A DNA stretch of 64,000 bases from the IMG/VR virus record IMGVR_UViG_3300045993_000425, positions 1-64,000 of that record. The stretch is one strand, 5' to 3'. The notes under the pieces are model-generated. The model was given only the letters and a program-made list of their open reading frames with translations. It was not told the origin of the DNA and made no database searches. The translations under genes and the position numbers were made by a program. The stretch is from a virus. Shown in pieces: positions 25,354 through 63,599 of this stretch (its first letter is position 1; each line of letters starts with the position of its first letter).

Positions 25354-25397
25354 ATGGACTCCGAGAGTGACTTAGATACAAACTCAGCAGCGGCTGG

Positions 25398-28300
25398 TTA
25401 CACTGGATAAGAAAAGTTCAGATAATAGGTTGCGTTCCCTAGTGCCCCCTTAAGAATGGTGAAATTGCTACCGCTCAGAAGACAGGGCGCCATACCGGAC
25501 GTGTTATCAGACGCAACAACGACACCAACGAATGTGGCTCTTGGCACAGGAAGACATGTCGTGATAACATCGTTATCGGCAAACAGAACTGTTCCTTTGA
25601 TCGCTCCAGTGACATAAGCGATCCCACCTTTGACCATATATTCACACGTTCCAAACACAGTGGCGTGGGCGCCCATGCTAGTCAGACCTGTCCAGCCTAT
25701 GTCACCTGGCTGACTGAACACTGCCCCGGTAGCAATTGTCAGCGTATTACCGCTCGGAACCGTTACGTTGTTGGTGGTGACGGCTGACGTGATCGTACTG
25801 GTTCCGCTGTTCCACGGGACGTTTTCGCTCGCCTGCCCTGTTACGTTGCCAATGAATCCATCGACTGAGGTTGTAGATCCGTTGACCGTTAGATTCCTAA
25901 CCTGTCCAACAACATAGGCACCGATCGTCAAGTTGCCGGTCAGCGTTCCGCCAGCCAGCCTCAGGTCGTCTGACGCATGACCGGTTAGTGTGCCATCGAT
26001 TGTCAGCGTCTTACCGGTCGGAACCGTTACGTTATCGGTCGTCAGTGCGCCGATCAATCCGCCGACAACCGTCAGCCCGTTGTGAGCCGTCAGCAAACCG
26101 GTATTGTCAATCGTAACGTGGTCGGATGAGGACGACGACACCGAACCGGCATGAAATGCCAGATACCCTCTTGCCCCATCGGCCGCTGCCCTGCCACCAG
26201 TGATTCGACCAAACTCATGCTGCGCCTGTGTGGGTCCAGCGGAGTTAGGCCTGAACGTCAATGACACACGATTTGGAGTCGCAACTGCCATGTTGTCGAA
26301 CCCGGTCATTAGCGTCAGAGCTGTCCGATCATCCATGCCTCCAGCCCCGTTGCTGATCGAAACACTTCCGATCGCGTCGGCAGTAAGAGTACTAAGCCCG
26401 TCTCCAACTCCAAGGATAGTGAGCTTGTCTGTTTGGCCGCTCAGACGAGGACCGCTGCTACCGAGCAGGATGCCGCCCTTTGTAGTATCGGCCGCTCCTT
26501 GTACACCAAAATGGTTTGCGACCCCGATGTCATACAGAACTGCGTCATTTCCAATGCTCAGAACCGGTCCACTCGCTCCAGTAGGGGTGGCCCTTAGCAG
26601 CCCAGATACATCAAGCCCACCCAGCACCTGCACGCCGCCAGCGTTCAGGATTCGGACTCGTTCTGTCGGGCCTCCGTATGTGCTCCCTGCTGTCCCAGAT
26701 AACCCAGTAGCAAAGACGATATCTCCTGACGCAGTATCCTGGGCGATGTGCCCCGTGTAATCGGCTGAGACGCGAGTGTAATTCACACCAGCCGTGCCAC
26801 CGTTGAAGTATGTATTGAAGCCGAGGCCAGCCCAGTTAGCGCGAATGATAACTGGATGGACTCCCCCGAACTGAGCTACTGCGTCACCAAGTGCCGTTGC
26901 GAACTGCGTCGGCGGACCAGTGGCAGACCCAAACCTAACGAGTTCAGTGCCATCTGATTTCGCGAATCCAAACACTCCAGTTGTGGGACCTGACTGCTTC
27001 GCTCGGAAGTTCATACCCCAGCTACTGTCCGAGTAGACACTACCCGAGGCGATGGTTCCTCCCCCTCCAACGATGAATTGCCGTGCGGTGGCATCCTGGG
27101 TCACACTCAGAGAACCAGCTACGGTGGTCGTCGCACCTGACTTGCTGATTGACACTCCAGTGTCGTTTGCCCCGTCTCCAATTGTGAGAGCCCCTGTGTA
27201 CCCTGCCCCGTTCGTCATTCCGGTAGCTAGCACCTGACGAGCGAGGTTGGTCATCGGAACTAGTGCATCGACATTGCTGATATTCGCATCAGATGTCCCT
27301 AGCTTAACTGTACCGTATGAGCTAGTAGTAGCGTTCGCCACGCTGGTCGAGTTGCTTCCACTTACCGGAGCGGTCTGTCCATCGACATAGACATCGCTTC
27401 CGACTCGCCAGGCAAAAACACGAATCGCTCCAGGCACGCCGGTCCTCGGGAGAGCCGAGATCTGGCACTTGACCGGAGTCAAGCTACCCTGCGTCACTCT
27501 GCGGTCTAGCTCTACATACAAGCACTCACCGTCTGCGAGGTCGGTCGTTCCAGGCAGAGCTGTCAGGTGGTTAGTCACATAATTACTGACAACTCCGGTT
27601 CCATCTGACGGGAAGATGTAGCGGACGCCTCCCCAGTATAGATTTCCCGTAGCCGAATCCCAGAACCAGTTGGTAGTTCCGGTGTACTTAGCCGAAGGGT
27701 CGAGGGAGAGCTTGATGTCCTGCTGCCCTCCTGGGGAGTACCAATAGGCCCCGCTGCTGCTCTCCCAGAGACGAGTCATGACCAGACCCATCCAATCACG
27801 CAGGCTTGTGATGCCCTTGTCGCCACCTACGAACGGGTCCACTAGGTTGGTCGTAGATGTCACTGCTGGCTCTACTCGGGTCGCCAACTGGGTGAAGGGC
27901 TGTAGAGCCGAGGGACTAGATCCACCAAGGGCGAGCCGGAAGGCCATCGGACGACAGTCGGTCACCGAGGTCACGTTCATCGCTGCGGAGACGAACACCG
28001 AGGCGATAGGCAGAACGGTTGGCTGGCTGCTGAAGCTGGTACTCGAGACGACGATCTTCAGCCCTAGCGTCCTCCCTAGAGGCATCCGCTGCTGGAACTC
28101 TCGTCCTGTTGTGTCTGATAAAAGGACTACCGTATCGGCCGTGGTGGGGTCCGCTGACCTCACCAAGTCAATGCCGATGTAGTTGGTTCCAGGGATGAAA
28201 CTGCCACTTACGTTGGCGTTTGAGGGGTTTAGCTGCTGGGCACTGGCATAACCAGGCATCTGAAAGAGGCTACCGGGCTCTGTAGCCGTTGCATGAATAA

Positions 28301-28511
28301 CGCTTCCACCAGCCACCAAGAGCTTGAGGTTGATTGCTAGTTGCCCGATTCCACCTGGGGCGATGGTGAATCCGCTGACGACGACGGGCTGACCACCAGC
28401 TAGCACCTGACCAGCCAGAAGCTGAAGTTCTGCTGTAACTGCGCTCTCAACCATTCGGAGGTGCGAGACATCAACGCGCATCCCTCCGACCCAGTTCATG
28501 TTTCGTTGCAT
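25398..28511 (-). CDS. Tail fibre / receptor-binding protein
   Basis: Baseplate-anchor-like N-terminus, ATTSSYGTVKL fibre motif, Gly/Thr-rich beta repeats, ERVRI motifs, C-terminal YLNFSYPV. Confidence 0.8.
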   Translation of the reverse strand: MQRNMNWVGGMRVDVSHLRMVESAVTAELQLLAGQVLAGGQPVVVSGFTIAPGGIGQLAINLKLLVAGGSVIHATATEPGSLFQMPGYASAQQLNPSNANVSGSFIPGTNYIGIDLVRSADPTTADTVVLLSDTTGREFQQRMPLGRTLGLKIVVSSTSFSSQPTVLPIASVFVSAAMNVTSVTDCRPMAFRLALGGSSPSALQPFTQLATRVEPAVTSTTNLVDPFVGGDKGITSLRDWMGLVMTRLWESSSGAYWYSPGGQQDIKLSLDPSAKYTGTTNWFWDSATGNLYWGGVRYIFPSDGTGVVSNYVTNHLTALPGTTDLADGECLYVELDRRVTQGSLTPVKCQISALPRTGVPGAIRVFAWRVGSDVYVDGQTAPVSGSNSTSVANATTSSYGTVKLGTSDANISNVDALVPMTNLARQVLATGMTNGAGYTGALTIGDGANDTGVSISKSGATTTVAGSLSVTQDATARQFIVGGGGTIASGSVYSDSSWGMNFRAKQSGPTTGVFGFAKSDGTELVRFGSATGPPTQFATALGDAVAQFGGVHPVIIRANWAGLGFNTYFNGGTAGVNYTRVSADYTGHIAQDTASGDIVFATGLSGTAGSTYGGPTERVRILNAGGVQVLGGLDVSGLLRATPTGASGPVLSIGNDAVLYDIGVANHFGVQGAADTTKGGILLGSSGPRLSGQTDKLTILGVGDGLSTLTADAIGSVSISNGAGGMDDRTALTLMTGFDNMAVATPNRVSLTFRPNSAGPTQAQHEFGRITGGRAAADGARGYLAFHAGSVSSSSSDHVTIDNTGLLTAHNGLTVVGGLIGALTTDNVTVPTGKTLTIDGTLTGHASDDLRLAGGTLTGNLTIGAYVVGQVRNLTVNGSTTSVDGFIGNVTGQASENVPWNSGTSTITSAVTTNNVTVPSGNTLTIATGAVFSQPGDIGWTGLTSMGAHATVFGTCEYMVKGGIAYVTGAIKGTVLFADNDVITTCLPVPRATFVGVVVASDNTSGMAPCLLSGSNFTILKGALGNATYYLNFSYPV
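25735..26039. repeat. 41-bp imperfect direct repeat within the fibre gene (25735-25775 and 25999-26039)
   Basis: attgtcagcgt(a/c)ttaccg(c/g)tcggaaccgttacgtt(g/a)t(t/c)ggt; encodes TxNVTVPxGxTLTI twice. Confidence 0.85.
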
Positions 28512-28550
28512 GGGGCCTCGTCCAGGCGGCAGACGACCGCCTTCAGCTTA

Positions 28551-28557
28551 AGATTGC
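28551..28557 (-). promoter_or_regulatory. AATCT late-promoter motif before the fibre gene
   Basis: gcAATCTtaag in the intergenic gap; one of 8-9 copies. Confidence 0.7.
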
Positions 28558-28982
28558 TATTCTGTCACACCGTCATTCGAGTAGTTAATCGCCTCAAATG
28601 TGAGAGCACCGGTCACCACTCCCTTGGGCGAGATCATCCAAGTCTGGTCCGTAATGGTGCAACCAGTGAACTTGAAGACAATACTATCCGTAATGCGATC
28701 CACTACTTCGATGGTTAGGTACTTCTGCTTCAGCATATCCTTGGCTGCTGCGACCATTCCGAGCCCCTCAGGACCACCTTGAGCTCTACCTCGCACGATC
28801 TGTAGGCTCCCAGAAGCCGAGAAGCCGGTAGGCATCAACTCAAACGTCATCAGGGTGTCGATGCCTTGAGCTTTGCGTACTGGAGTCTGGATTCGTGGCT
28901 GAAAGCCGGTCGCCCATCCCATCAGGCTGCCATTTACATAGATCTTGAGGTGTGCTGCTACTACCGTTTCAGACCGAGGCAT
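28557..28982 (-). CDS. Tail tube-like (tube initiator) protein
   Basis: Paralogous pattern to the 53528 tube gene (LKIYVNG..G, IEVVDR, FTGC). Confidence 0.7.
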   Translation of the reverse strand: MPRSETVVAAHLKIYVNGSLMGWATGFQPRIQTPVRKAQGIDTLMTFELMPTGFSASGSLQIVRGRAQGGPEGLGMVAAAKDMLKQKYLTIEVVDRITDSIVFKFTGCTITDQTWMISPKGVVTGALTFEAINYSNDGVTE

Positions 28983-37570: not shown

Positions 37571-37631
37571 CTGCCGTCCATTATGTGGCAAGAGAAGGGA
37601 GATCGGGCAGAGCTGACCGATCTTCTCACTT

Positions 37632-37638
37632 AGATTAC
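37632..37638 (-). promoter_or_regulatory. AATCT late-promoter motif before baseplate J
   Basis: gtAATCTAag. Confidence 0.7.
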
Positions 37639-37654
37639 GCTCATCTCACACCTG

Positions 37655-37683: not shown

Positions 37684-37702
37684 AGCGTCCACGAGGCAGA
37701 AC

Positions 37703-43522: not shown

Positions 43523-46270
43523 TTAGTGTGCCAGGTCTTCTTTAGGCAGACCGGCCTGTTCGTTGGTTGGTGACTTGTGCGCGTCTCTGTCGAGTGGCAT
43601 TGATGGACCCTTTTCATCAGGTGTAAGGTCCGGCTTCTTGAGCCCCATCATGATGAGGAACATTTCATTGACCTTGGATCCACTTGTGGTCAGCTGTTCC
43701 ATCAACTCCCTGAACTTCTCCCCTTGCTTAAACATAGCCTTGGAGAACACATCTTTCTGGTCGCCACCTCCCCCACCTGTGGCCTTCCGACTCGCCTCTC
43801 CAGAGCCGTCTCCCATTGACCTGACTTGTCCGGTTGCTGCTTCTGCGCTTCCGAATGTTTCTGGATCGATCTGGTATTCTAGGTTTGCCAGCACCCTGAA
43901 GTTGTCTTCGCTTGCCCCAAGTCCGTCCTTCCTGGACTTGTCGTTTCTCCACTTCAAGACATCGCCCTTATACTCATCACCCAGAATCAGGTTGGCGAGC
44001 TTTGTCGCCTGCGTACCGGCTCCGGATGTTCCCCCGATGTAAGTGCCTAGAGCCCTGGTCGCACTGAACCTGACTTTATCTTCGATGTTCTTTCGTGTGA
44101 TACCCATAGAACTGAACTCAATTGGGATATCTTTGGTTAGGTAGTTGCCATTCTTGTCTTTCCTCAATAGACTCATGGCTGTGGCATAATCGAGGTTCGC
44201 CAACATGTTCTGACCTAGCAAGTTGTTGCCAGGCATGACCTTCACCGCATCTGCTAGGTTGACAGAGCGCCGCCAGTCGGTAGCTCCTTTCAATAGGTTG
44301 TCCCCTACCTGCAATCCCATTTGGTTCTGCTGCAACATCCGAAGCTGCTCTGGGCTCTTCATCTTGTTGGGGTCAATGCCGCTCGAGAGCATGCCGACTA
44401 GGCCATCCATAGACCCAATGGTGCGGTTAGGACCCATCAATGCAGCCACGGCACTGCCGAGAGTCTCCTGTACCACCGTTTGGTCAAGACCCGTGTGGCG
44501 CAGTGTTTTCAGTAAGTCCCCGCCACCAAGTGCTCCAATGGCTGCGATAGTCGCCGCTGCCCCACCAGACATGCCTCCAGACACTGATGTTATTGCAGAA
44601 CCATACAACCCTTTGGTCTTTAGTACCCCTCTCCCGCCAGCACCGACTAATGCCTCTAGCAAACCTTGTTGCTGCTCTGGTGTCATCCCAGACTTGTAGG
44701 CATTTCGCGTTGCTAGCTCGATGGACGATGCTGACAACCCGATGCGATTCGATGTAGCGACCAATCCTTGTGCTCGACTTAGAGCTGTGCTAATGGCTGC
44801 GTTCTCTCTCGTCTGCGAGGCTTTCTTTCTGGCGACTGAATCCGCCTCTTGTTCGTTCAGCATAGCGTTGACGTTTGCGTCTGCGTTGGCTAGCTCAGCT
44901 TGCCGAATATTTGGATGTAGGATGTTTCGTGCTGTATTATCCAGATATCCCCAGATTGTCTTCTGTCTCTCTCCTAGATCGTAGGCAGCGGCTCGAGACT
45001 TCCCGAAGCTTGCGGCTGAACCGTCGTCATCGCTAACGGTGCCGATTCTTCTGCTATCAATGATCTGCTGACGGGCATATTCCGTAATCAAGTCACCGTG
45101 CTGGATACTTGCCTGCATCTGCCCTACGCTCTGTCCTGACCTCGCTGCGATGCCCATCTGCATATCAGCAGCTTGCTGTCGTAGTTCAAGCGTATCTCTC
45201 TGGTATCCATGCACAAACTGCCCAGCCTTAACGCCGGCGTAGATTCCAGCGAGTCCTAGCCCGAGAGCCCCTGCTCCACCAGCAATAAACGCTAGCCTGC
45301 CTCCAGCTAGTGTGTTAGCCAATCCTCCAGCACCGGGAATTGAGCCAAGAGCCCCCGCCAGCATTCCAAAGCGATCACTTCCCTCCTCGCCATATCCTGC
45401 CTGCTGATCTAGAAGGGACTTGTGATTGGCCGAAACACTAGCAAGTCGTCTACCGGCTGTCGCCATGCGCTCGTTCGCTGCGATTCGCTCTTTAGAAGAG
45501 GCCGCGCTCTCTGCCTTATCCTTCCACTTGGCGTAGCTATCCGACAGCCCGTTGATGATTCGCTTGGACTTCTCCAGCTTCTTGTCTAGGTCTTCTACCG
45601 ACCTCCCGAGCACCTCCTTCAGGACCCGTCCCGTCTTGCCGGCCTCCCCACCGAGTTCCTTGATGAGAGCCTTGTCCTTCAGGATGGCATTGGACAAACC
45701 GCCACGCTGCTCTGGTGACATCAGCTGCTTTTCATGCAGACGCTTGGGCTTCTCATCTGGAGCAACCAACGTCCTCTCGCTACCCAGCTCCCCCTGCTTG
45801 ACATACAGCTTCGATACAATGCGATTCACTTGTTCGTTTTTCTTTACAAGCTTGGGCACTTGACTAGGGTTGACCTCCCTCGCAAGGTCTAGAGCTGCTT
45901 GGGTGCCCTCCTTCAACGCCAAAGCCTTCTGGAGCCTAGAGGTTGTCTTAGAGATTCGACTGTCCACTTGCGCCAGTGACTGACTCAGCACCTGCTTGAG
46001 AACACGGTCGAGGGTCTTCGCTTGGTCCCCTAGTTCCGCGAACCCCCTCTTACGCTCTAGGAGGAACTTCGCGAAAGCTCCCTGCGCCAGATTCTGCTGC
46101 TGGGCAGACATAGGTCTGCTACCGGCACCACCAGCCCCACCCTGCCCAATTGCGCTGAAGACCTTGCTAGCCTGACCACCCTGGCTGATGATCTGCTGGA
46201 GTACCTGAAGGATCTGCCTACCACCGCTGGCATCACCTTTGATCGCAATACGCAAGTTGGTATCGGCCAC
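43523..46270 (-). CDS. Tape measure protein
   Basis: 915 aa, helical, Ala/Gly-rich, directly after two chaperone ORFs. Confidence 0.75.
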   Translation of the reverse strand: MADTNLRIAIKGDASGGRQILQVLQQIISQGGQASKVFSAIGQGGAGGAGSRPMSAQQQNLAQGAFAKFLLERKRGFAELGDQAKTLDRVLKQVLSQSLAQVDSRISKTTSRLQKALALKEGTQAALDLAREVNPSQVPKLVKKNEQVNRIVSKLYVKQGELGSERTLVAPDEKPKRLHEKQLMSPEQRGGLSNAILKDKALIKELGGEAGKTGRVLKEVLGRSVEDLDKKLEKSKRIINGLSDSYAKWKDKAESAASSKERIAANERMATAGRRLASVSANHKSLLDQQAGYGEEGSDRFGMLAGALGSIPGAGGLANTLAGGRLAFIAGGAGALGLGLAGIYAGVKAGQFVHGYQRDTLELRQQAADMQMGIAARSGQSVGQMQASIQHGDLITEYARQQIIDSRRIGTVSDDDGSAASFGKSRAAAYDLGERQKTIWGYLDNTARNILHPNIRQAELANADANVNAMLNEQEADSVARKKASQTRENAAISTALSRAQGLVATSNRIGLSASSIELATRNAYKSGMTPEQQQGLLEALVGAGGRGVLKTKGLYGSAITSVSGGMSGGAAATIAAIGALGGGDLLKTLRHTGLDQTVVQETLGSAVAALMGPNRTIGSMDGLVGMLSSGIDPNKMKSPEQLRMLQQNQMGLQVGDNLLKGATDWRRSVNLADAVKVMPGNNLLGQNMLANLDYATAMSLLRKDKNGNYLTKDIPIEFSSMGITRKNIEDKVRFSATRALGTYIGGTSGAGTQATKLANLILGDEYKGDVLKWRNDKSRKDGLGASEDNFRVLANLEYQIDPETFGSAEAATGQVRSMGDGSGEASRKATGGGGGDQKDVFSKAMFKQGEKFRELMEQLTTSGSKVNEMFLIMMGLKKPDLTPDEKGPSMPLDRDAHKSPTNEQAGLPKEDLAH

Positions 46271-46272
46271 GA

Positions 46273-46767
46273 CTATGCCTTTCGGATCATGGGTCCGAGC
46301 GGGTCTGAGCTCAGGAACCTGTCATCTTTTAGATTGCGACCGAACTGCATATCGATTAGGTTTTCTTCATTCTCGGGCAGGACCAATTTGGGCTTCTTCG
46401 ATTTGTCGGCACCTGCCTTCAGCTTTGCCGACTTCTCTTTGTCTGCCTTCACGTCTTTGTTCAGCTGCTCGAGGAAGCGGTCGTCGGCTTCTTCTGCTGC
46501 CTTCTCTGCTGCCAGACGCTTCTCTCGCTCTTCTTCGCTCTCTGAGAGCACCTCTGCGTACTCAGACCTCTGCTGCTCAGGCATCTCATCGAAGATGTGC
46601 TCAAACCAGGCTTGCAGAACCTGCTCGACAGGAAGTTCGGAGACTACATGTAGGGGTGTGTGAAACGTGACACTGTACTGCCTGCAAACGTGACGCAGCC
46701 ATGCTTGACGGTCGGGATTAAGGACCGCCAGCATGGCTCGACACTCGATCGCCCGATCGAGGTCCAA
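46273..46767 (-). CDS. Tail assembly chaperone (downstream part)
   Basis: RQYSVTFHTPLHVVSELP motif; synteny; start codon uncertain. Confidence 0.6.
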   Translation of the reverse strand: MDLDRAIECRAMLAVLNPDRQAWLRHVCRQYSVTFHTPLHVVSELPVEQVLQAWFEHIFDEMPEQQRSEYAEVLSESEEEREKRLAAEKAAEEADDRFLEQLNKDVKADKEKSAKLKAGADKSKKPKLVLPENEENLIDMQFGRNLKDDRFLSSDPLGPMIRKA

Positions 46768-47166: not shown

Positions 47167-47241
47167 TTTTGTCCCTTCAGTTAGTTCCTATGAGGGAAGT
47201 AACAGAAAGCAGTGATCTGCGGGGCTGGGTGGTTGACTTGT

Positions 47242-47248
47242 AGATTGC
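47242..47248 (-). promoter_or_regulatory. AATCT late-promoter motif before the chaperone/tape-measure operon
   Basis: gcAATCTAca. Confidence 0.7.
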
Positions 47249-47399
47249 CACCGTGCTAGAGGGTTCCAATGATGATGTAGTGTCTTTCCATGAGTTAGGC
47301 TCAGAATAGGGAGGGGTCGTGCCACAAGCTGTGGGTTCGGTCGATGGTTCGCAGTTGGTGGAAGTCTTCTGGTTGCTAGACTTCTGCTACTGAGCCACC

Positions 47400-49341: not shown

Positions 49342-49701
49342 CTACCAGAAGGTGGGTAGCTTCGGAACCACCCCACCCTGCGGGAGGTCGAAGATCATCT
49401 GCGTGGGGACGTTGATTGCCGCACCTAGAGCAACGGTGTAGGCACTCAGGTCTGCTGGCTGACCAGCCACATTCTTGGTCGTCCGACCATCTGCTGAGAC
49501 ACCCTCAGAGGGGGCTAGACCGACCTGAATGTGAGTAGTATCGGTCAGTTTGAGCACAATAACTGCGACTCCAGGGAGCCCTGTGCCCTCAACGTAGGCC
49601 TTGGCTCCAGGCCAAAAGGCGCGGGAGGCGGCGACCTGGATGACTCCACCCTTGGTGCCGGTTGCTGCGAACGCTTCTTTGTAGGCATCAATCTGAATCA
49701 T
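49342..49701 (-). CDS. Probable small virion protein (late gene within the early island)
   Basis: MIQIDAYKEAF start after GAGGG; AATCTA motif at 49727-49731. Confidence 0.65.
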   Translation of the reverse strand: MIQIDAYKEAFAATGTKGGVIQVAASRAFWPGAKAYVEGTGLPGVAVIVLKLTDTTHIQVGLAPSEGVSADGRTTKNVAGQPADLSAYTVALGAAINVPTQMIFDLPQGGVVPKLPTFW

Positions 49702-49756
49702 TTCGCCCTCATGGGTATCATCTGGTAGATTGCTGCCCGCGTTCTGATAGTTTTGC

Positions 49757-49785
49757 TTGACGTTCTGAGAGTGCAGTGGTAGAAC
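49757..49785 (+). promoter_or_regulatory. Sigma70-type promoter TTGACG-N17-TAGAAC (leaderless)
   Basis: TG-extended -10; ATG 49793 follows 8 nt later. Confidence 0.7.
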
Positions 49786-49792
49786 CTGATTC

Positions 49793-51193
49793 ATGGACAA
49801 CGCAAACACCGCCGCCGCCGAAGTCGAGAAGGTCTACACCGTCGCCGCCGCCGGTCTGTCTCGGCTCGCGGCTGTCATCGAGAAGCTCAACAAGCGGGCA
49901 GTCAAGCTGGGCTGCGCCCCCATCGCCTTCGAGCAGGTGGGCGAGGTCTACTCCAAGACCATTCGCGACCCGCTCACCCACATCGAGATGGTCGTGCGGC
50001 TGGTCGATGTCCTCCTCTGCGGCAAGCAGCCCGGTGTCAACGGATGGCAGCTGGTCGCGACCATCGCCCCGGTCAAGGCGGATGACGGGTCGGTCGCCAA
50101 CATCGTCAACGTCGTCCCCGGCTTTCAGGGCATCCCGGTCGAGTACCGGACGGTCAAGATGACCTGCCAGCACTGCAACACCCTCCGCTACCGCAACGAC
50201 GTTGCCCTCCTTCAGGAGATCTCGACCGGCACCTACAAGCAGATCGGTCGGAACTGCCTCGCTGACTTCCTCCGGTCGGGTGACGCAGACGCTCTCCTCG
50301 GCTACGCCGACATCATCGAGTCCGCTCGCAATGCTTTCGATGAGGAATCGGGCGGCTTGGGCTCCGCTTCCGCCGATGCAGTCAAGCTGGTCGAACTGCT
50401 GACCTGGACCTGCTCCATCGTCGCCAAGGTTGGAGCCTACGTCTCCAAGAAGAAGGCCGACATCGAGGGGATCATGCCGACCAGCTTCATCGCTCGCGAG
50501 GTCATCATCGGTCGCGGCAAGGAGGCTGACAAGGCTCGCGTGGAGTTCCAGCCCACCGAGGCCAACGTCGAGAAGGCGAAGCTGGTCATCGACTGGTGCC
50601 GCAATGTCCTGCCGGGGCTGGTCGAGCAGGATGAGGCGAACGACTACCTCTACAACCTCAAGATCTCGACCGCCAACTCTGAGTGCCTCATCAAGCTGAT
50701 CGGGGTCGCCGCCTCTGCCGTTTCCGCCTATGACCGGCACATCTCCCAGAAGGCGGAAGCCGCCAACAAGGTCATCAGCAAGCACTTCGGGGTGGTTGGG
50801 GAGCGCATCAACTTCCTGAAGGTGACCGTCCTCCGCATCACCTCCTTCGACGGCTTCTACGGCACCTCCTACGCCTCCACCCTCCTCACCGAGGACGGCA
50901 ACGTCGCTGTCTGGCTGGGCTCCTCCCCCATCCAGAGCCACGTCGAGTCTGTCAAGGCTGACGGCACCGTGACCTACACCGCCGGAACCGCCAACGTGGG
51001 CGACAAGGTGGTCATCTCTGCCACCGTCAAGGCTCACGACAACTACAAGGGTGCCTGCCAGACGAAGCTGTCTCGCTGCCAGACCTGGACCCCTGCGGGC
51101 ATCGAGGCTGAACTCGCCAAGCAGGCGAAGAAGGTGGCTCGCGAGGCGAAGAAGGCCTCCAAGGCGACCAAGGCTGCGGCTCAGGCGGCCTAG
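49793..51193 (+). CDS. Hypothetical early protein with Zn-binding motif and C-terminal OB-like fold
   Basis: CQHC..R.R, IGRNC; ISATVKAHDNYKG..QTKLSRC; extreme GC3 codon bias. Confidence 0.85.
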   Translation: MDNANTAAAEVEKVYTVAAAGLSRLAAVIEKLNKRAVKLGCAPIAFEQVGEVYSKTIRDPLTHIEMVVRLVDVLLCGKQPGVNGWQLVATIAPVKADDGSVANIVNVVPGFQGIPVEYRTVKMTCQHCNTLRYRNDVALLQEISTGTYKQIGRNCLADFLRSGDADALLGYADIIESARNAFDEESGGLGSASADAVKLVELLTWTCSIVAKVGAYVSKKKADIEGIMPTSFIAREVIIGRGKEADKARVEFQPTEANVEKAKLVIDWCRNVLPGLVEQDEANDYLYNLKISTANSECLIKLIGVAASAVSAYDRHISQKAEAANKVISKHFGVVGERINFLKVTVLRITSFDGFYGTSYASTLLTEDGNVAVWLGSSPIQSHVESVKADGTVTYTAGTANVGDKVVISATVKAHDNYKGACQTKLSRCQTWTPAGIEAELAKQAKKVAREAKKASKATKAAAQAA

Positions 51194-51222
51194 TCGTCTG
51201 CTTGGTAGTGCTATAGGATGGC

Positions 51223-53470: not shown

Positions 53471-53499
53471 AAAGCAAAAGGGCCGGTTTCCCAGCCCTT
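53471..53499 (-). terminator. Intrinsic terminator after the tail tube gene
   Basis: Reverse strand reads AAGGGCTGG-GAAA-CCGGCCCTT TTGCTTT. Confidence 0.8.
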
Positions 53500-53527
53500 A
53501 GTGCGTTCAGACTGTGGAAACAGTCAG

Positions 53528-54028
53528 CTAGCCACCGGATGCATGAACCGCAAGGTCCATCGAGTCGGTTGGTTCTTCGTTCGTATCCGCCGTCTCGTCG
53601 GTGTAGACAAGACCCTGGAACGTCACGGTGAACTCCTGAAGCGACCGAGGAGACACCTGGCTCGAGAAGCCGGTCGCCTTGCAGTTGCTGACCTTCATGA
53701 TAGTAGCCTTTGCAGGATCAGCAGCGGAACGGTCTGTCAGCTCGATGGAAATGTCCTCGTAGGTGAGCATCTCAGTCAGCTTCGGAATCAGCTGCACGCC
53801 GGAAGTGCTGCCAAACGCTCCCTGGTCCATGATGCGGAAGCCGGCTGCTGTAACGCTGACTACCTCGGCTCCGGTATAGACGAGTTCGGCAGCCGAAAGA
53901 CGACCGATGATGTAGACTGGGGCGACATCGAGGTTCACGTTCCAGCTGCAATTGGCGAAGAAGCCGACCTTCTTGCCGGAAACCGACAGGATGGCTCGTG
54001 CGCCATGAATGACTTTAGAAGCTGCCAT
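53528..54028 (-). CDS. Tail tube protein
   Basis: Directly after the sheath; IHGARA..GKKVG, IIGRLSAAEL. Confidence 0.85.
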   Translation of the reverse strand: MAASKVIHGARAILSVSGKKVGFFANCSWNVNLDVAPVYIIGRLSAAELVYTGAEVVSVTAAGFRIMDQGAFGSTSGVQLIPKLTEMLTYEDISIELTDRSAADPAKATIMKVSNCKATGFSSQVSPRSLQEFTVTFQGLVYTDETADTNEEPTDSMDLAVHASGG

Positions 54029-54047
54029 CTATCTATCCTCTTCTTTC

Positions 54048-55841: not shown

Positions 55842-55862
55842 CTGAGTCTCCTATCGACAGTT

Positions 55863-55869
55863 AGATTAC
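55863..55869 (-). promoter_or_regulatory. AATCT late-promoter motif before the sheath
   Basis: gtAATCTAac. Confidence 0.7.
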
Positions 55870-55881
55870 TGTCAAGACTGC

Positions 55882-57507
55882 TTACAGCCCAGCGGCGCCA
55901 GGCGCCTTGGGTGGCTTGGGAGCCGGTGGTGTAGGGGTTGGGGGCTTCGGGGATGCAGAGGGCGGCTTGCTGGTGTTTGGTCCCTTGGGAAGGGCGGCTG
56001 GAGGCTTAGGAGCCATGCCTGGGGCTTTTGGAGCCATACCTGGGGCCTTGGGCTTGGAGCCAGGAAGCTCAAGCTTGGCAAGGAGCTTACCCTTGGCGAT
56101 TTGCCCGCCAGAGCCAGGAGCCTTGTGAGTCTTGATCTCACTGGCCTTCTCAGGTACTCCCTTACCTTCGCACTTGCAGTCTTCACAGCCACAGGTCTTG
56201 CAGCAGGAGGACTTCTTCAGGGTCGAGATGATCTGCTTCTCAGCCTTGCCGAGCCGACGCAGTGAGCCGCCATTGTTCTTGGTCGCGCTCCACCTCTTGG
56301 CAGCCTTCTCATTCGGCTCCATAGCCGATTTCTCGGTAGGGGCGATGGCTGACTTCTCCATCGAGAACTTGCTGCACTTCTCATTGTGCTTCCCATTGCC
56401 GCTGCACTCAGCGCACTTCTCTTCCTTGTGGATCTTGGAGTCGAGCCCGTGCTCCTTCACTGGTGCTGGCTTTACATTGCCATGCTGACCTGGGAGCTTG
56501 CCGTAGCTACCATGTTTGACCGGCTTTTCCTTGATAGGCTCGATCCCCTGGTGGGCTGGCTTCTCGGACTGCATCAACGGCTGCGTTCCACGCTTCCCAG
56601 CACAGTGGCGACAGGAGGGGGTCTGACAAGTCCAGCTAGCACTGCCAGAGCATCCCTGCTGGTGCTGGCCACGAAGCCCACAGCTCACACACTCTCGGTC
56701 AGCTAGAGGAACCTTACCGAGGATCTCATGCGGATGGAATGGATACGGACTGCCTACTGGAGCAGCCTCTACCTGCTGCTTGATCAACTTGAACATCTGT
56801 CCGCTACCCATGTTCTTCTCCAGACGGCCTGATTTAGCCAGTTCACGCTGTCGGAGTCCCAACAGCAGCTGGTGATATGTTTCCACGACTGACTTGAGAA
56901 CCTGCTGCGCCGCCCCAGCTGGGCTGACATCAGTCAAATGCTTGCCTAGTTCCTCTAGAGGGATGGCTGGGTTCTCAAAGTCGATATTGTACTTGAAGAA
57001 ACCATTGACACCAGCACTAGGTGGCATGACCGTGTAGTAGTCTTGAGGCTCGGTGTCGAACTTCTCGATGCCTTCAATGGGTGGAGTGCAGTGATTCTTC
57101 GCTGGGCCGTTCGTAAACACTAGGAAGTTCTTGCCATTCATGCGAACAGCAACCGACTCCTGGCCGAAACGCTCCCCAATTCTAGCGAGCTGCTCAATGC
57201 TAGCCCCATGCACGATCCAAGACTGCTCCGGTTTACCGTACTTGCCCCGAGTTGGCTCAATTTCAGTCAAACCCTCCTGAAGGAGAGCTCGACCCATAGC
57301 CTCATGGCCTGACTCAATCGGAGCCTGGGAACTAATAGGGTTCTCACCACTCAGAATCCCAACAGGACCAGGACCAAATACCCGAAAAGGATGATCCGAC
57401 TGACTAAATGGCTTGGCTACCGCTCCAGGCTCCTGGGGCGTCCCCTGCTCCTGACTAGGAGGAGGGAGAGTGTTCGGATGAAACGACTGAGTAGCGGAGT
57501 CGGCCAT
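55882..57507 (-). CDS. Probable internal virion protein with DUF3293-like N-terminal domain and repeated LxK(S/A) sites
   Basis: ILSGENP..GKYGKPEQSW..IGERFGQESV; VLKS, LAKS, MEKS, LGKA, LKKS; AATCTA at 57515-57519 supports ATG 57507. Confidence 0.65.
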   Translation of the reverse strand: MADSATQSFHPNTLPPPSQEQGTPQEPGAVAKPFSQSDHPFRVFGPGPVGILSGENPISSQAPIESGHEAMGRALLQEGLTEIEPTRGKYGKPEQSWIVHGASIEQLARIGERFGQESVAVRMNGKNFLVFTNGPAKNHCTPPIEGIEKFDTEPQDYYTVMPPSAGVNGFFKYNIDFENPAIPLEELGKHLTDVSPAGAAQQVLKSVVETYHQLLLGLRQRELAKSGRLEKNMGSGQMFKLIKQQVEAAPVGSPYPFHPHEILGKVPLADRECVSCGLRGQHQQGCSGSASWTCQTPSCRHCAGKRGTQPLMQSEKPAHQGIEPIKEKPVKHGSYGKLPGQHGNVKPAPVKEHGLDSKIHKEEKCAECSGNGKHNEKCSKFSMEKSAIAPTEKSAMEPNEKAAKRWSATKNNGGSLRRLGKAEKQIISTLKKSSCCKTCGCEDCKCEGKGVPEKASEIKTHKAPGSGGQIAKGKLLAKLELPGSKPKAPGMAPKAPGMAPKPPAALPKGPNTSKPPSASPKPPTPTPPAPKPPKAPGAAGL

Positions 57508-57526
57508 GTTTGGTAGATTACCGGCG

Positions 57527-58270
57527 TTAGAGGACGCCACTGAGGATGTCTTTGTTCATTAGCGTAGCGATGTCAGAGATCTGCGAGATGACTTGTTTGT
57601 TGGGTGCTGTCATAACAACCGCAGAAGGAGGCATATTGGCAATGATCTCGCTTGCTGTGCCCGATTTATCCAGAGCGTCATACCAAGTATGCCGCACCTT
57701 CCCTGTCAGGTTGAGAGAGCGAGTGTAAACCTGCTCCATCTCTACCCCTTCTACCTGAGTCAGGGGTCCCACTTGGAACGAACTCACCATGAATCCTCTC
57801 TGGTCCAAGTAGCGGAACTTCACTTGCATTAGGGAGTACATCATGATGCTGTACAGGAAGAGGCAGTACTCTACCTCGGAGTGGACAAAGCAGGCGATGG
57901 TGTACTGCTCGTTAGCTGTTACGCCGAACTTAGGCCTGAAACTGTTTGGGTCTACGATATCTGCCTGACTGATGCTGTCCCAATCGATGTCGCTTAGGGT
58001 TGACTCGCCTTCTGGAGCGGACCCGAGAGCGATGGCAATGCATGGCAGGTCTGCCTGTCCTACCTGTAGGCCTAGCCTGACCGAGATCTTGGTCTTGGTG
58101 AACCAATCCTTGCACTGCTTTAGGGTCTTGTCCCCATACTTGTCCTGCGTCAGAGGGTCGGATAGCAGCTCCTCGAGCATATTGTCGATCAAGTCTGGGT
58201 TTGACCTGACCTCGAGGAGCCCAGCTCGCACAGCTTCTCGAATAAGTAGGTCACTCTGGACGATTCCCAC
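57527..58270 (-). CDS. Neck / tail-completion protein
   Basis: LPCIAIAL..E, YTIACF, YTRSL; located upstream of the sheath. Confidence 0.6.
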   Translation of the reverse strand: MGIVQSDLLIREAVRAGLLEVRSNPDLIDNMLEELLSDPLTQDKYGDKTLKQCKDWFTKTKISVRLGLQVGQADLPCIAIALGSAPEGESTLSDIDWDSISQADIVDPNSFRPKFGVTANEQYTIACFVHSEVEYCLFLYSIMMYSLMQVKFRYLDQRGFMVSSFQVGPLTQVEGVEMEQVYTRSLNLTGKVRHTWYDALDKSGTASEIIANMPPSAVVMTAPNKQVISQISDIATLMNKDILSGVL

Positions 58271-58278
58271 AATGTCTC

Positions 58279-58593
58279 CTAAGCGTGGTCGACAACTTGA
58301 AGGTTGAAGATGTAGGTGTAAGCATCCTGAGTCGCAACATTCGCGACTCTCATGGCACCAAACAACAGCCCAGCAGAGGCGATGGTGTTCGATGGCAGAT
58401 GGACGACCGCATAGGTGGTGTCAGGCTGGGCGACTTGACCTGTAAGCTCAAGAACCGGTGTGACATCCGATACCTGCTGCCGTAGGGTGAGGGTCACGGT
58501 GAAGCCAGTTAGGGACAAGAAGGTTCCCCCGAGTACTCTGACTCGCATCCTGAATGTTCTACTGTCGTTTTTTGGCAGCTTTACTGTTGTCAT
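58279..58593 (-). CDS. Small Ig/BppU-like virion protein
   Basis: KNDSRTFR...LTGFTVTLTLR beta-rich pattern; AATCTA at 58602-58606. Confidence 0.55.
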   Translation of the reverse strand: MTTVKLPKNDSRTFRMRVRVLGGTFLSLTGFTVTLTLRQQVSDVTPVLELTGQVAQPDTTYAVVHLPSNTIASAGLLFGAMRVANVATQDAYTYIFNLQVVDHA

Positions 58594-58610
58594 AGGTTCC
58601 TAGATTGCCT

Positions 58611-61600
58611 TTAGCAGCCCTGGTTTGGGTCTTGCTTTACCTGCCAGACATCGTCATCCAGCTGCCTAATGAACGACTCATCTAGTAGGTCGAAGAGAAG
58701 CTCCTCGGTCCATCCAGAAGCAATGAAGAGAACATCCGTAGGCCTCCAAGGCTGCTGGTAGACCTGTAGGTCGGTGCGGCTAGCCCTCCCCATCGTCCCG
58801 ACAAACTGGACAAGTGCGCTGCCGCTACCGGATCGTCCAGAGAATCCGAATCCTCGGGGCTCAATAATGCCCGAGCGACCAGCAAAACTGCCCTGGAGGA
58901 TCGGCAAGCTGGGTAGAGTGGTCGAAGACCTAGCCGCCAGGGCATTCCCTACCAGACCCGATGCGGTAGTAGAGCGCACCTGCGTGCTGTAAGCCTCGAG
59001 TACAGTGGAGCCTGACCGACCCTGCTTGCCTGCAACCTGGGGCACGGCAATGGTGGACCTACCAGATGTCCTACTCAGGTTGACAGTCGTCGAGCTAGAC
59101 CTGAAGGAAGCGGTCGAGGCTCCAGGGAGCACTCGACCAGACCTGGCGGCTGTCCCTAGTAGTTGATCAATTGTGTGAGGTAACGTCACACCAGAGCGAC
59201 CAGAAATGGTTGGTTTGTCGACGTTCGCGATTCGCGAACTGCGAACGGCACCCTCAACGGCCTGGAGAACCGTTCCAGACCGACCAGCTAGCCGGATCGC
59301 ATCAGGAAGGACTGTTCCAGAGCGTGGATAGACCCCAGTGGCTTGTGGCTGGGTCGTGGAAGCTCGACGCAGGCTGGCTAGGTTCAGGAGAGAGGCTAGA
59401 CCAGAGCGGCCAGCCATCTTGACTGCCGTGGCCAGAGCGGAGGAGCTACGGCCAGCCATCTGGGTTGCGATCAGATTCGCTGTCCCAGACCTGCCTGGGG
59501 CACCTGATAGGTCTGGCAGAGCTCCACCAGACCGGCCCGACATCAAAACCTTCTGGAGCGATGAGGTAGCCGAGCGTGCGGTGGTCTGGGAGTGCCAAGG
59601 CAAGGCAGAGGCGAACCCGGCTCGACCGGAGATCTTTGTGGCCTCAGGAGTGACAGCCGCAGACCTGAGGGAGCTAGCTAACCTCTCTGGCGGGATGCCA
59701 GCCTCGACCTTACCAGACCGTGCATTCTGCCTCTGGGTGGCGATATTGATCCACTCAGACGTGGTCACCCCTCCAGCCTCGGCCTGGATCAGCATTCGAG
59801 AGGTGGTCTGAGCTGAAGCGGACCTCCTCGAGCCATAGCTAGTCGTCAGGTAGAGCTGAATGGTTGCGCTACCGAGCTGGGTCGTTGGGCCTTCACTGGT
59901 TGCCAGCAGGATGAAGCCTTGACGCAGAGCGGCAGAACCAGAGCGACCACCTAGAGTGATAGCCAGACCAGAGTCTAGGCCTACTACTGTGGCTACCGCT
60001 GGTACTGCACCGACCTCCTGCCGAAGAACCGTATCACTGGAAGAGATGGTTGCGGTGGCTGCAACGACACCCTGCTCTGGCTTGGTGATGGTGTCGGAGG
60101 CGATTGCAGTAGCGGTTGCGGGGGTCGAACCGAACTCCCCCAGCACCAGACCATCGCTACCTGCGACCTGGGGAACCCCTACAGCAGAGACGAGGTCAAC
60201 GAAGTGTCCTACATCGGTGCTGTTGACTACTGCCTGAGCTGCTACGGTCAGGGTGTCGCCAACGATCTTGTCGTCTACTCCGACGATAGTCGCAGTAGAT
60301 GAAGCACTCTCTGCACCAGCTAGGATAGCTAGGTCGACCCCAGTGGCCAGAGCGTCTACCGCGATGTAGTTTCGTTCGTTCCTGGTGACCTGCTCGACGA
60401 CCGAGATGTTCGCTGCTGCTCCGACCGTCTCAGAGCCTGAAAGGGTTGCGACCTCGGCGTTGCTGACACCTACCGTCGCTGCGTTGGTCGCTGTCTCTGC
60501 TTCAGAAAGAGCGTCGAGCGAAGCGGTGGCAGCCTGGGCACCAACCGCTCCAGCCTCGCCTAGAATCCGACTGTCGACCCCAGCGACCGAAACAGACGCG
60601 GCTTCTGTTCCAGAGTCTACAAAGTTGCCTACATCTAAGGCGACAGCGGTGAAGGTAGGAGCGGCTGAAGCGTGCTCGCCATAGCCGACGCTGCTGAAGT
60701 CATCAGCTACGGCCAGGAACGAGGCAGCATTGGTCCCGAACTCGTGCTCATCTAGCCTGTCGGGACCAGAAACTGAGGCCTGACCAGAGACAGTGCCCGA
60801 CTCAGCCCCAGAAATGGCCTCCAGGCCCACCAGACTGAACGTAGCGGCTGTGGTGCCTGTCTCGGTCAGGGCCGTCTGATCGATGCCGCTAGAGGCTCCT
60901 GAAGCCCCTACAGACCCAACATCGACTCCGACTAGGATATCTGACCCGGTCGGAGAGGTTGACGCAGCTACAGATGCCGTCTCGCCTCGCTGGCTGGCAT
61001 CGCTGGCTGCCTGGGATGAGACGGCAGAAACAGTTCCCGTCTCGATGAATCCCTTGATGTCCGTCGCAGAGACAGCAAAGGTAGCTGCGTCGGTGCCTGT
61101 TTCAGCCAGAGTCGTGGCATCTACAGCCGTCTGGTTCGAGGAGGCTGCTACCGATGCCGGCTCGGAGGAAACCTGCGCGTCCGTAGCTGCTGCTGTAGCT
61201 ACAGCCGAAACCGTTCCCGACTCAGGCAGGACCCTGTTATCGGTCGCTGCAATGGTGGCGGTCGCTGCGTCAGTTCCCGACTCGACCAGAGCTAGAGCGT
61301 CGGCAGCTGAAGTGGCCCCAGAGGCCGGTCCAGTTCCTGATTCTCCACCCACACCAGCGTCGGTCGCTGCCGTTGAGCCAGAAGCTGCTACCGTTCCCGA
61401 CTCACCCAGTACTCTAGAGTCAACTCCCGCTACCGAGACGGTTGCGGCATTAGTGCCGGTTTCGTTCTCGAGGTAGCTGTCAGAGGCGACCACAGCGACA
61501 GAGGCGGCATTGGTTCCAACTTCCACCTGAACAACTGCATCGACTCCAGTGACTACACCACCAGAGGCGAGAACCGTGCCGGTTTCGTTGAAGACCCCAG

Positions 61601-63569
61601 AGGTCGACTTGACATCAGTGCCTAGAGCCGTGACATCAGCAGCCTCTGTCCCGGCCTCGACCAGGGTCAGGCTGTCGGCCCCCGCGATAGACCCAGTGGC
61701 CCCATTTGTCCCAGTCTCTGGGAAGGTTCCCTGCTCACTCGTGGTGCTAGAGGCGACGGCTGCAACAGTTCCTGCCTCGGTCAGGACAAGCTGGTCGGAC
61801 GAGGAGGTCGCTGAAGTCCCAGATACTATCCCCGACTCAACAGAGACGAGAGCATCGGCTGTCGCCTGGCTGCTTGTCGCTGCTGTCGACCCTGACTCAG
61901 CAGCCACCAGGGCATCGGACCCTGAGATAGCCCCAGAGGCAGAGACCGTTCCAGCCTCGACAGCTACCAGGACATCTGTTCCAGAGACTACGCCACCAGA
62001 AGCAAGTACCGTACCTACTTCGTTGAATGCCCCAGCGGTAGATTTGGTGTCGGTCCCGAGAGCCGTGACATCAGCAGCCTCGGTCCCGGTTTCAGTCAGA
62101 ACCTCTGCATCGCTCGAGGAGATAGCTCCAGATGCCGAAATCGTCCCAGACTCAGAGAGCAGGAGAGTGTCGGATGAAGTGGTAGCTCCAGTAGCTGAAA
62201 CCGTCCCAGATTCAGGTAGAAGGAGGCTGTCAGCGGCTGATACAGTTCCAGAAGCAGCCGTGGTTCCTGTTTCGCCCTCGAGGACCGAGTCTAGGGTCGC
62301 TTGAGTAGAACTGGCTCCTGTGGATCCTGACTCTGCTGCCTGACCGGCATCGCTACCGGCTGTAGTCCAGGCAGCCGACACAGTGCCAGAATCAGCCCAA
62401 GCCAGAGCTTCAGCACCAGCTACGGCACCAGAGGCTGCTACTGTGCCTGTTTCGTTCTCGGTTAGGCTCTCAGATGACGCTACCGCAACTGTCGCGGCTG
62501 TAGTCCCTGACTCGGCACCCTGAAGGGCATCCGAGCCTACACCTGTCCCATCAGCTAGGACAGTGCCGGTTTCGTTGAAGACACCTCCCGCAGTCTTGGT
62601 GTCAGTTGCTCCAGGTGTCCCTACGCTTGCTGCTACGGTTCCTGTTTCCGCGTATGCAGAGGCATCGGTGCCAGCCGAGGAGGCAGAGCCACCTACAGTA
62701 GAGGTTTCTGCTCCGACCTGGGCATCGCTAGCTGCCGTCGCCCCAGAAGCGGCAACCGTCTCAGTTCCAGCATTGGCTGCTGCGTCAGTTGCGGCAGAGC
62801 TCGAGGAACCACCAACCGTTCCGCTTTCACCTTGCTGGCCTGCGTCCGAACTGGTTCCCGTATTGCTCGCAGCAACTGTCCCTGACTCGCCCCAGTTTGT
62901 TGAGTCAGAAGAAGCGGTTGCTGCTGTAGCTGAATCGGTTCCTGACTCAACGACAAGGAACGAGTCGCTACCGGCTACCGCACCAGTGGCGGCTGTTGTT
63001 CCTGACTCAGCCCACTGCAAGGCTTCAGAGCCGACAATGGTCGCAGAAGCCCCTACAGTTCCTGATTCTACCCGTAATGTGGCATCGTTGGCTGCTACCG
63101 TCGCGGCTGCTGCGACAGTCCCCGTCTCGACCTCTACGAAGATGTCTGTGGCCGCCACCGTAGCTGCGCCAGGGACTGTTCCTGACTCAGCGTCTAGGAT
63201 GGCATCGAGAGCACTAGCCGCAAAAGCTGCGCCAGTACTACCTGAATCTGACCCAACTAAGGCACCTGAGTCGGTGATCCCTGCTGTTGCGGCTACGGTC
63301 CCAGACTCGCCCCTTACAGAGGCATCGGTTCCAGCCGATGAGGCGGAACCAGCTACAGTCCCAGACTCAGCAATGATGAATTGGTCGCTACCTGCTACGG
63401 AAGCCGCTGCTGATGCGCTACCTGATTCGCCATAGACAACGGCATCAGACGCTGCAACAGAAGCTGTCGCCGCTACTGAGCCTGGCTCTGAGTAGTTAAC
63501 GCCACCGCCAGCTGTACCAGCTAGGATGACAGCGGTAAATATGCCGCTTCTTTTAGGAAAGAAAGCCAA
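58611..63569 (-). CDS. 1652-aa repetitive virion filament/fibre protein
   Basis: About 60 acidic 20-aa E(S/T)GT..A....(S/T)D repeats, then about 20 basic RSG/RSS repeats; TTG start after GAGGAGG; AATCT at 63588-63592. Confidence 0.8.
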   Translation of the reverse strand: MAFFPKRSGIFTAVILAGTAGGGVNYSEPGSVAATASVAASDAVVYGESGSASAAASVAGSDQFIIAESGTVAGSASSAGTDASVRGESGTVAATAGITDSGALVGSDSGSTGAAFAASALDAILDAESGTVPGAATVAATDIFVEVETGTVAAAATVAANDATLRVESGTVGASATIVGSEALQWAESGTTAATGAVAGSDSFLVVESGTDSATAATASSDSTNWGESGTVAASNTGTSSDAGQQGESGTVGGSSSSAATDAAANAGTETVAASGATAASDAQVGAETSTVGGSASSAGTDASAYAETGTVAASVGTPGATDTKTAGGVFNETGTVLADGTGVGSDALQGAESGTTAATVAVASSESLTENETGTVAASGAVAGAEALAWADSGTVSAAWTTAGSDAGQAAESGSTGASSTQATLDSVLEGETGTTAASGTVSAADSLLLPESGTVSATGATTSSDTLLLSESGTISASGAISSSDAEVLTETGTEAADVTALGTDTKSTAGAFNEVGTVLASGGVVSGTDVLVAVEAGTVSASGAISGSDALVAAESGSTAATSSQATADALVSVESGIVSGTSATSSSDQLVLTEAGTVAAVASSTTSEQGTFPETGTNGATGSIAGADSLTLVEAGTEAADVTALGTDVKSTSGVFNETGTVLASGGVVTGVDAVVQVEVGTNAASVAVVASDSYLENETGTNAATVSVAGVDSRVLGESGTVAASGSTAATDAGVGGESGTGPASGATSAADALALVESGTDAATATIAATDNRVLPESGTVSAVATAAATDAQVSSEPASVAASSNQTAVDATTLAETGTDAATFAVSATDIKGFIETGTVSAVSSQAASDASQRGETASVAASTSPTGSDILVGVDVGSVGASGASSGIDQTALTETGTTAATFSLVGLEAISGAESGTVSGQASVSGPDRLDEHEFGTNAASFLAVADDFSSVGYGEHASAAPTFTAVALDVGNFVDSGTEAASVSVAGVDSRILGEAGAVGAQAATASLDALSEAETATNAATVGVSNAEVATLSGSETVGAAANISVVEQVTRNERNYIAVDALATGVDLAILAGAESASSTATIVGVDDKIVGDTLTVAAQAVVNSTDVGHFVDLVSAVGVPQVAGSDGLVLGEFGSTPATATAIASDTITKPEQGVVAATATISSSDTVLRQEVGAVPAVATVVGLDSGLAITLGGRSGSAALRQGFILLATSEGPTTQLGSATIQLYLTTSYGSRRSASAQTTSRMLIQAEAGGVTTSEWINIATQRQNARSGKVEAGIPPERLASSLRSAAVTPEATKISGRAGFASALPWHSQTTARSATSSLQKVLMSGRSGGALPDLSGAPGRSGTANLIATQMAGRSSSALATAVKMAGRSGLASLLNLASLRRASTTQPQATGVYPRSGTVLPDAIRLAGRSGTVLQAVEGAVRSSRIANVDKPTISGRSGVTLPHTIDQLLGTAARSGRVLPGASTASFRSSSTTVNLSRTSGRSTIAVPQVAGKQGRSGSTVLEAYSTQVRSTTASGLVGNALAARSSTTLPSLPILQGSFAGRSGIIEPRGFGFSGRSGSGSALVQFVGTMGRASRTDLQVYQQPWRPTDVLFIASGWTEELLFDLLDESFIRQLDDDVWQVKQDPNQGC

Positions 63570-63599
63570 CCGTGCCTCCTCTCCGAAAGATTAGGCTGC

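Follow-up and report, generated by a model that had tools for sequence, protein, structure and literature searches.

Late transcription in bacteriophage T4 employs the sigma factor gp55, the co-activator gp33 and the gp45 clamp, with TATAAATA at the −10 position of the promoter (PMC2988020; structure PMC7892883). Here we describe a probable arrangement of the same general kind in IMG/VR virus record IMGVR_UViG_3300045993_000425. The stretch analysed, hereafter the window, comprises positions 1 to 64,000 of that record and forms the opening 64 kb of a virus contig of 166,843 bp (56.6% guanine plus cytosine, GC) that encodes a contractile-tailed phage. The sole named relative of this phage is Myxococcus phage Mx1 (OR576727.2, 169,621 bp). 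A short word, YAATCTW, stands in the gaps ahead of late genes in the genome analysed, and we consider it likely that this word is the −10-only late promoter of an Mx1-like myovirus, read by a sigma factor of the phage itself and often giving rise to leaderless mRNAs.

The resemblance to T4 lies in a single short −10 box, no −35 box, placed at the virion genes of a large myovirus and presumably used by a phage sigma-type factor on the host core enzyme. The word itself is different, because GYAATCTW is conserved here and the k-mers enriched upstream include none that resembles TATAAATA. The proteins appear to differ as well: T4 gp55 is small and corresponds to little more than a region-2-like part, whereas the candidate sigma described here has about 350 amino acids and spans regions 1.2 to 4.1. 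In addition, the replicase of this phage is of the Pol III alpha type, and many of its transcripts are predicted to be leaderless. Extended −10 promoters (TGnTATAAT), whose TG is contacted by region 3 of primary sigmas, offer a second comparison. They share with the word the independence from a −35 box, G at −14, A at −11, T at −7 and, if the start is as predicted, a discriminator of 6–7 nucleotides (nt) before +1, and the phage sigma retains region 3. However, AATCTW matches TATAAT at only 3 of 6 positions, T at −15 is not conserved, and the candidate reader has no region 4.2 at all rather than just leaving it unused. The middle and late promoters of Thermus phage P23-45 likewise serve later genes and do without a −35 box; in that phage the host sigma A stays in use and is prevented by phage proteins from reading the −35, whereas here the truncated sigma is encoded by the phage. 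The middle and late promoters of Bacillus phage SPO1 have both −35 and −10 boxes. As proposed here, a phage sigma (gp28, gp33/34) replaces the host sigma for a later gene class in SPO1 (for context on phage-encoded sigma70-family factors, PMC13401047). Unlike the SPO1 factors, the protein of the present phage lacks the −35-reading domain, and its promoter would be one box.

Our argument is built on the placement, the conservation and the spacing of the word and on the domain make-up of the sigma. The total of YAATCTW in the window is that expected by chance (17 copies against 15.2 in shuffled sequences), and the signal therefore lies in placement: 14 of the 17 copies are on the minus strand, and seven are intergenic although intergenic DNA makes up only 4.6% of the window (p = 5.8e-6). 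Over the whole 167-kb genome, 19 of 39 copies were intergenic, in 5.8% of the sequence (p = 6e-14). These shares were obtained with our own, home-made gene calls (185 genes), which are biased against starts without a Shine-Dalgarno (SD) sequence. An earlier note, which had picked out the word, is thus borne out as far as its non-random intergenic placement is concerned, and receives no help from the raw count in the window. That note had also regarded absence of the word before head genes as fatal to its reading. Outside the window we found the word before the portal gene (154017) and the variant GCTATCTT before the capsid operon (134589–134594), besides copies before, among others, a 1590-residue gene at 135946–140718 (word at 140762) and the gene of a 1320-residue late protein (word at 115928); the reading is thus not refuted on this count.

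The word recurs in relatives whose proteins are considerably diverged. Mx1 orthologs are about 37–42% identical to the proteins of this phage (tail sheath, 42% by tblastn), and in Mx1 the word precedes the sheath gene, as GTAGCAATCTA, as well as baseplate, baseplate-J, Kelch, tailspike and kinase genes and further late genes of the plus strand; in several cases the arrangement is AATCTW-N6-ATG. A megablast of the sheath region against phage records and an IMG/VR scan with the sheath protein as a single query gave no match, and relatives were reached only by tblastn (Mx1) and through alignment of the sigma. The family set consists of 80 IMG/VR loci (GC 34–69%) that were found via homologs of the sigma candidate, which form 95 clusters; Mx1-like phages account for at least 150 IMG/VR contigs (95 protein clusters). 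In these 80 loci the top oriented upstream 7-mer was CAATCTT, with 62 occurrences against 3.6 expected, distributed over 53 loci, and its enrichment exceeded that of Shine-Dalgarno words. Four further complete genomes (GC 42–63%) showed intergenic enrichment with p from 2e-8 to 6e-34; in one of them (G002), 41 of 44 copies were intergenic. The reversed word, used as a control, showed no enrichment in three of these genomes and only a weak one in G001 (12 against 5.6 expected, p = 0.01). Most genes downstream of the word in the relatives had no match to the present genome (BLASTP, 1e-5), and conservation at orthologous positions rests on a few genes.

The candidate reader is encoded on the minus strand at 161891–162976 of the contig, adjoining the helicase gene, and its Mx1 counterpart (WNM70309.1, annotated 'putative RNA polymerase sigma factor'; 37% identical) is located likewise. 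One of the closest homologs (P0002), 57% identical, lies on a 175-kb contig. Taken alone, the protein barely matches Sigma70_r2, and its only PHROG matches are weak ones to 'RNA polymerase sigma factor' families. With a profile of 46 sequences, PDB sigma factors were matched (E = 7e-8) over a span that begins in region 2, includes region 3 and reaches the first part of region 4. The AlphaFold model (predicted local distance difference test, pLDDT, 86) found primary sigmas with a Foldseek probability of 1.0, and VIA-align placed model residues 11–357 on residues about 93–569 of E. coli sigma70 (Z about 13). The aligned span corresponds to regions 1.2 to 4.1, and the protein stops about 45 residues short of the sigma70 end; the missing tail of about 45 residues is the region 4.2 helix-turn-helix, the reader of the −35 box. 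A sigma without region 4.2 fits the missing −35 box, and all 46 aligned members of the family share this end point. No Sigma70_r4 domain was detected anywhere in the genome in six frames. We also considered a split sigma, and the small gene that follows the sigma gene (67 residues; 154 in Mx1) had no Sigma70_r4 match. The phage RNA polymerase domains PF00940, PF00562 and PF04997 gave no six-frame match, although the PF00940 control was silent in every control genome and subunits of the phiKZ type, if very diverged, may have escaped detection. The sigma is present in every related locus, as the loci were selected by it. Across the 80 loci the word never occurs within 400 nt upstream of the sigma gene and clusters 5–6 kb downstream, which fits a cascade in which the sigma is made first.

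Another factor might read the same −10-type element: a host alternative sigma, the host primary sigma remodelled by the phage, as in P23-45, or the product of the gene at 19145–20197. We think this improbable, yet it is the rival that survives best, since the sigma and the motif are linked only by their co-occurrence. There is, moreover, a second −10-only class, GTGCTAT, which also needs a reader, so that two factors and two promoter classes have to be paired. The gene at 19145–20197 carries an early-type promoter (TGGACA-N17-TAGTAT, with the −10 word at 20220–20225 on the minus strand) and has a syntenic counterpart in Mx1; its product, taken up as a second sigma-like candidate, showed no sigma signal in Pfam or PHROG, nor did its profile resemble that of the sigma family in hhalign. 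Only the protein encoded at 161891–162976, with its family (P0001), could be confirmed here as a sigma. As to a host sigma, the word is invariant across relatives of 34–69% GC while the early-type −10 word changes from genome to genome (TAGTAT, TCGATAGA, TATACT, GATATA), and the constancy of AATCTT against this variation argues for a reader that the phage brings with it.

The shape of the motif agrees with that of a −10 element. The extended consensus is GnnG(C/T)AATCT(T/A), with R at −17, G at −14, Y at −13, AATCT, and W at −7. Among 130 non-redundant near-start sites of the family, the flanks were A at −18, G/A at −17, G at −14 and C/T at −13, whereas they were flat in a control of 123 intergenic copies far from co-oriented starts. 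In the 80 loci, AATCTT was enriched 6.5-fold, with 106 copies in the sense and 17 in the antisense orientation. Its single-base variants stayed at about 1-fold, except AATCTA (2.7-fold) and TATCTW (about 2-fold), and among 60 permutations of the same composition the top two words were TAATCT and AATCTT. With W taken as −7, A at −11 is invariant by anchoring and −7 is T (74%) or A; substitutions at −11 reduced the enrichment to 0.3–1.3-fold for AATCTT and to 0.7–1.7-fold for the weaker AATCTA. The earlier note had reported no shared −35, and indeed the information content is flat upstream of −18, nothing is conserved farther upstream in the aligned sites of this genome and the family, and no TTGACA-like box was found 16–18 nt upstream of the hexamer. 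The word is oriented, intergenic and located upstream of transcription units, as are −10 elements of the sigma70 family. A 15-column position weight matrix (PWM) separates real sites poorly from coding copies because the core dominates the score.

The distance between AATCTW and ATG peaks sharply at 6–8 nt (34 sites), beside a broad group at 14–36 nt that has ribosome sites, and the N6 gap is dominant in Mx1 and in G002. A gap of 6–8 nt before SD-less ATGs is the same geometry as that of the sigma70-type early promoters of this phage, TAGTAT+6+ATG. If W is −7, then the A of the ATG is +1; in this register −11 is A, −10 is T, −7 is T/A, and −14 is G, the last as in extended −10 promoters. So fixed a distance to ATG would also suit a site-specific endonuclease, and several copies lie between co-oriented genes, where read-through is expected; the word might, rather than being a promoter, function at the RNA level and mark where polycistronic late messages are processed or cleaved, a few bases ahead of start codons. 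We regard this as very unlikely because copies also head divergent units for which no co-oriented transcript from upstream is possible (47246, 78929, 83858 and 98856), with no alternative promoter-like element in those gaps, and because the conserved 5' flank (G at −14, R at −17) and the sigma70-promoter-like geometry suit recognition in DNA. We give equally low odds to a model in which the word is bound by a late activator or some other DNA-binding protein, in the manner of Mu C, P2 Ogr or the T4 MotA box, and polymerase is thereby recruited to a −10 element distinct from the word. Activator-dependent late promoters likewise show short oriented boxes upstream of late genes, but the leaderless cases leave 6–8 nt before the ATG, no space for a separate −10, and no second conserved element was seen upstream or downstream. 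Chance, or the AT-richer composition of intergenic DNA, would account for a window total equal to that of the shuffles but is scarcely credible in view of the permutation ranking, the bias in orientation, the recurrence of the word in six complete genomes and 80 loci and the mostly flat reversed-word control.

The −10-only late promoter would thus work as follows. GnnG(C/T)AATCT(T/A) would be the single recognition element of the late promoters, with AATCTW at −12 to −7, and the start of transcription would lie some 7 nt beyond W; in many cases this is the A of the ATG, and the mRNA would be leaderless. The phage sigma70-family protein would direct the host core RNA polymerase to the word; as it ends before region 4.2, it would neither read nor need a −35 box. 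Its own gene, which has no word, would be transcribed earlier, and the product would then activate the genes for virion structure and lysis. By analogy with T4 gp55, a partner protein at the polymerase flap may have to stand in for region 4.2.

Several points weigh against this reading. The transcription start sites, the late timing and the sigma as the reader are what we infer from the features above, and for the last of these the connection would come from co-occurrence alone. All 80 loci were chosen for carrying the sigma, leaving no sigma-less control set. The conserved aromatic residues of sigma region 2.3/2.4 could not be placed by eye against the E. coli sequence, and this region appears to be very diverged. 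The predicted +1 is a purine in 78% of the sites when leaderless sites are left out, compared with 51% at −1 and 70% at +2, a modest preference. Some good matches are inside genes or antisense (13219, 14432), and some sites precede genes that are of unknown function or non-structural (98856, 134613, 144737).

Within the window, the eight minus-strand YAATCTW sites of the earlier note were all found, every site is co-oriented with its gene, and the distance from hexamer to start is 6–74 nt. The tail and lysis genes identified include the tail sheath, a baseplate J protein with Kelch repeats, a baseplate/lysozyme-like protein and the endolysin. The word is present in 8 of the 12 called minus-strand late-gene gaps of at least 10 nt; at least two of the four wordless gaps vanish when a longer in-frame start is used. 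On the whole, the reading of the earlier note, late promoters with no −35, is supported.

Two sites give predicted leaderless mRNAs, because the word is 6–7 nt from an SD-less ATG: GCCGGTAATCTA at 57514–57524 (minus strand), 6 nt before the in-frame ATG 57507 (541 residues), and AAAGGCAATCTA at 58601–58611 (minus strand), 7 nt before ATG 58593 (104 residues). The others have longer gaps, all on the minus strand. The tail-sheath ATG (55841) is preceded at 20 nt by GACAGTAATCTA (55862–55872) with AGGAG in between, and a terminator-like hairpin with a T-run at 53478–53499 (minus strand), after the gene following the sheath gene, likely ends the sheath unit started at 55867. AGCCTAATCTT (63587–63597) is 17 nt before TTG 63569 of a 1652-residue protein, with GGAGAGGAGG in between. 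GGTGGCAATCTA (47241–47251) heads a minus-strand operon from 47166 to 37997 across a gap of 74 nt and is back-to-back with a plus-strand GTGCTA box at 47253; as this gap is divergent, it must hold a promoter. GAGCGTAATCTA (37631–37641) lies 39 nt (TTG) or 60 nt (ATG) before the gene of the baseplate-J/Kelch protein of 2231–2238 residues. The site atAGCAATCTT at 28550–28560, directly after the stop codon of the upstream gene and 38 nt before ATG 28511 of a 1037-residue virion-type protein, has the top PWM score of the window (16.0). The weakest site is the variant TATCTA at 25373–25378, found before the endolysin as the earlier note had stated, 19 nt from its ATG (25353) with GGAG in between; TATCTW is enriched only 1.8–2.0-fold across the family. 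A candidate internal copy, GTCGCAATCTA at 46330–46340 (minus strand; PWM 12.6), matches G at −14 and C at −13 and lies within the 3' end of the gene 46273–46734, 59 nt before the start of the gene 43523–46270; it is a possible promoter word of uncertain function.

The remaining site, GGCAGCAATCTA at 49726–49736 (minus strand), had been described as marking a lone minus-strand gene. Such a gene does exist amid plus-strand genes, starting at ATG 49701, 24 nt after the word, and encoding 119 residues behind a GAGGG ribosome site, and the site is present; it is intergenic, however, only if the gene starts at this ATG. The starts chosen by longest open reading frame or by SD are probably wrong at 55882–57540 and 49342–49809, where the promoter word points to ATG 57507 (leaderless) and ATG 49701, respectively. 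We also noted G+C-rich hairpins without a T-run just downstream of two words on the minus strand, at 28520–28545 (GGCGG..CCGCC, after 28551) and at 37595–37625 (GAGATCGG..CCGATCTC, after 37632), which may stabilise the 5' ends of late mRNAs. Elsewhere in the genome, at 134589–134618 (L004:10589–10618), a back-to-back pair of late-type words is separated by 19 bp, with GCTATCTT directed towards the capsid operon and GCAATCTT towards a small gene on the plus strand whose start is 7 nt further on.

The genome has two other promoter classes. About twenty early-type sigma70 promoters, gTTGAC-N17-TGaTAGTATc, lie ahead of small genes of unknown function and cluster at 95–107 kb and 140.8–146.2 kb of the contig (L002, L003, L004, L005); in the window there are, besides the one at 20220–20225, minus-strand sites at 1476–1481. 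Two of them stand exactly 6 nt before an ATG (98892 and 140812), so that early mRNAs can be leaderless too. Between 46.5 and 64 kb, canonical sigma70 promoters were below chance (3 against 4.6). The third word, (T)GTGCTAT, resembles an extended −10 (TG-n-TAT...) and is followed 9–10 nt later by an SD-less ATG. Its sites are at 47253–47258 and 51208–51213 on the plus strand of the window and at 76472, 78936, 83867 and 98210 of the contig. In divergent gaps it is frequently paired back-to-back with AATCT. Between the diverging ATGs of the 35-bp gap at 78917–78951, the sole features are AATCTA in one direction and GTGCTA in the other. In such short divergent gaps each word is about 7–10 nt from its own ATG. 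TAGCAC was considered as an upstream partner of AATCT, but the two are separated by anything between 6 and 18 nt, and TAGCAC is the reverse complement of the GTGCTA box of the divergent plus-strand gene, for which reason the idea of a sigma54-like or two-part promoter was dropped. GATCT, considered as the Mx1 equivalent of the word, turned out to be a separate element within or beside Mx1 early promoters. At 86–121 kb of Mx1 (L009–L010), GGATCT recurs in the spacer and just after the −10 of dozens of TTGAC-N17-TAGTAT promoters; it may serve to turn early genes off, either as an operator or as a site of methylation.

The replication set identified includes a Pol III alpha-type polymerase, a DnaB-type helicase, a Toprim primase, a class II ribonucleotide reductase and an RNA ligase, together with an SbcC-like protein and a GroEL-like chaperonin; ARAGORN found no tRNA or tmRNA in the window. 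Upstream of the helicase–sigma genes is an AT-rich stretch with at least five AGATCT repeats (L006:4790–4870, about 164,790–164,870 of the contig), bordered by C runs and with two TAGTAT hexamers on the other strand, a possible origin, genome terminus or array of operators. The portal gene holds an intein with a LAGLIDADG homing endonuclease, and the gene of a C5 cytosine methylase holds a Hint/intein domain (L005:5197–9984 and L005:14380–17595, both on the minus strand).

The literature on Mx1 promoters, on the word itself and on phage sigma late promoters yielded no description of the motif, and the Mx1 genome announcement and a myxophage review are silent on promoters or sigma-directed transcription. 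While the kind of system is known from T4, novelty lies in the word, in the truncated architecture of the sigma, in the invariance throughout the family and in the predicted leaderless design. We lean, by a small degree, towards a broader view, namely that an undescribed sigma70-type branch ending after region 4.1 is paired with an invariant GYAATCTT across hosts of 34–69% GC and drives a largely leaderless late programme as a self-contained, host-independent transcription module.

A natural sigma without region 4.2 that reads one short word would inform the understanding of −35-less promoter recognition and might find use as a small orthogonal part for gene expression. Gene starts, too, can be corrected with the help of the motif, as several late genes begin at SD-less ATGs that gene callers overlook. 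For a large and almost unstudied group of phages of roughly 165–180 kb, of which Mx1 is the sole cultured member, the result is a regulatory map that names the genes activated together, the probable starts of their messages and the probable switching protein. Since Mx1 and its host can be grown, each step of this map is directly testable.

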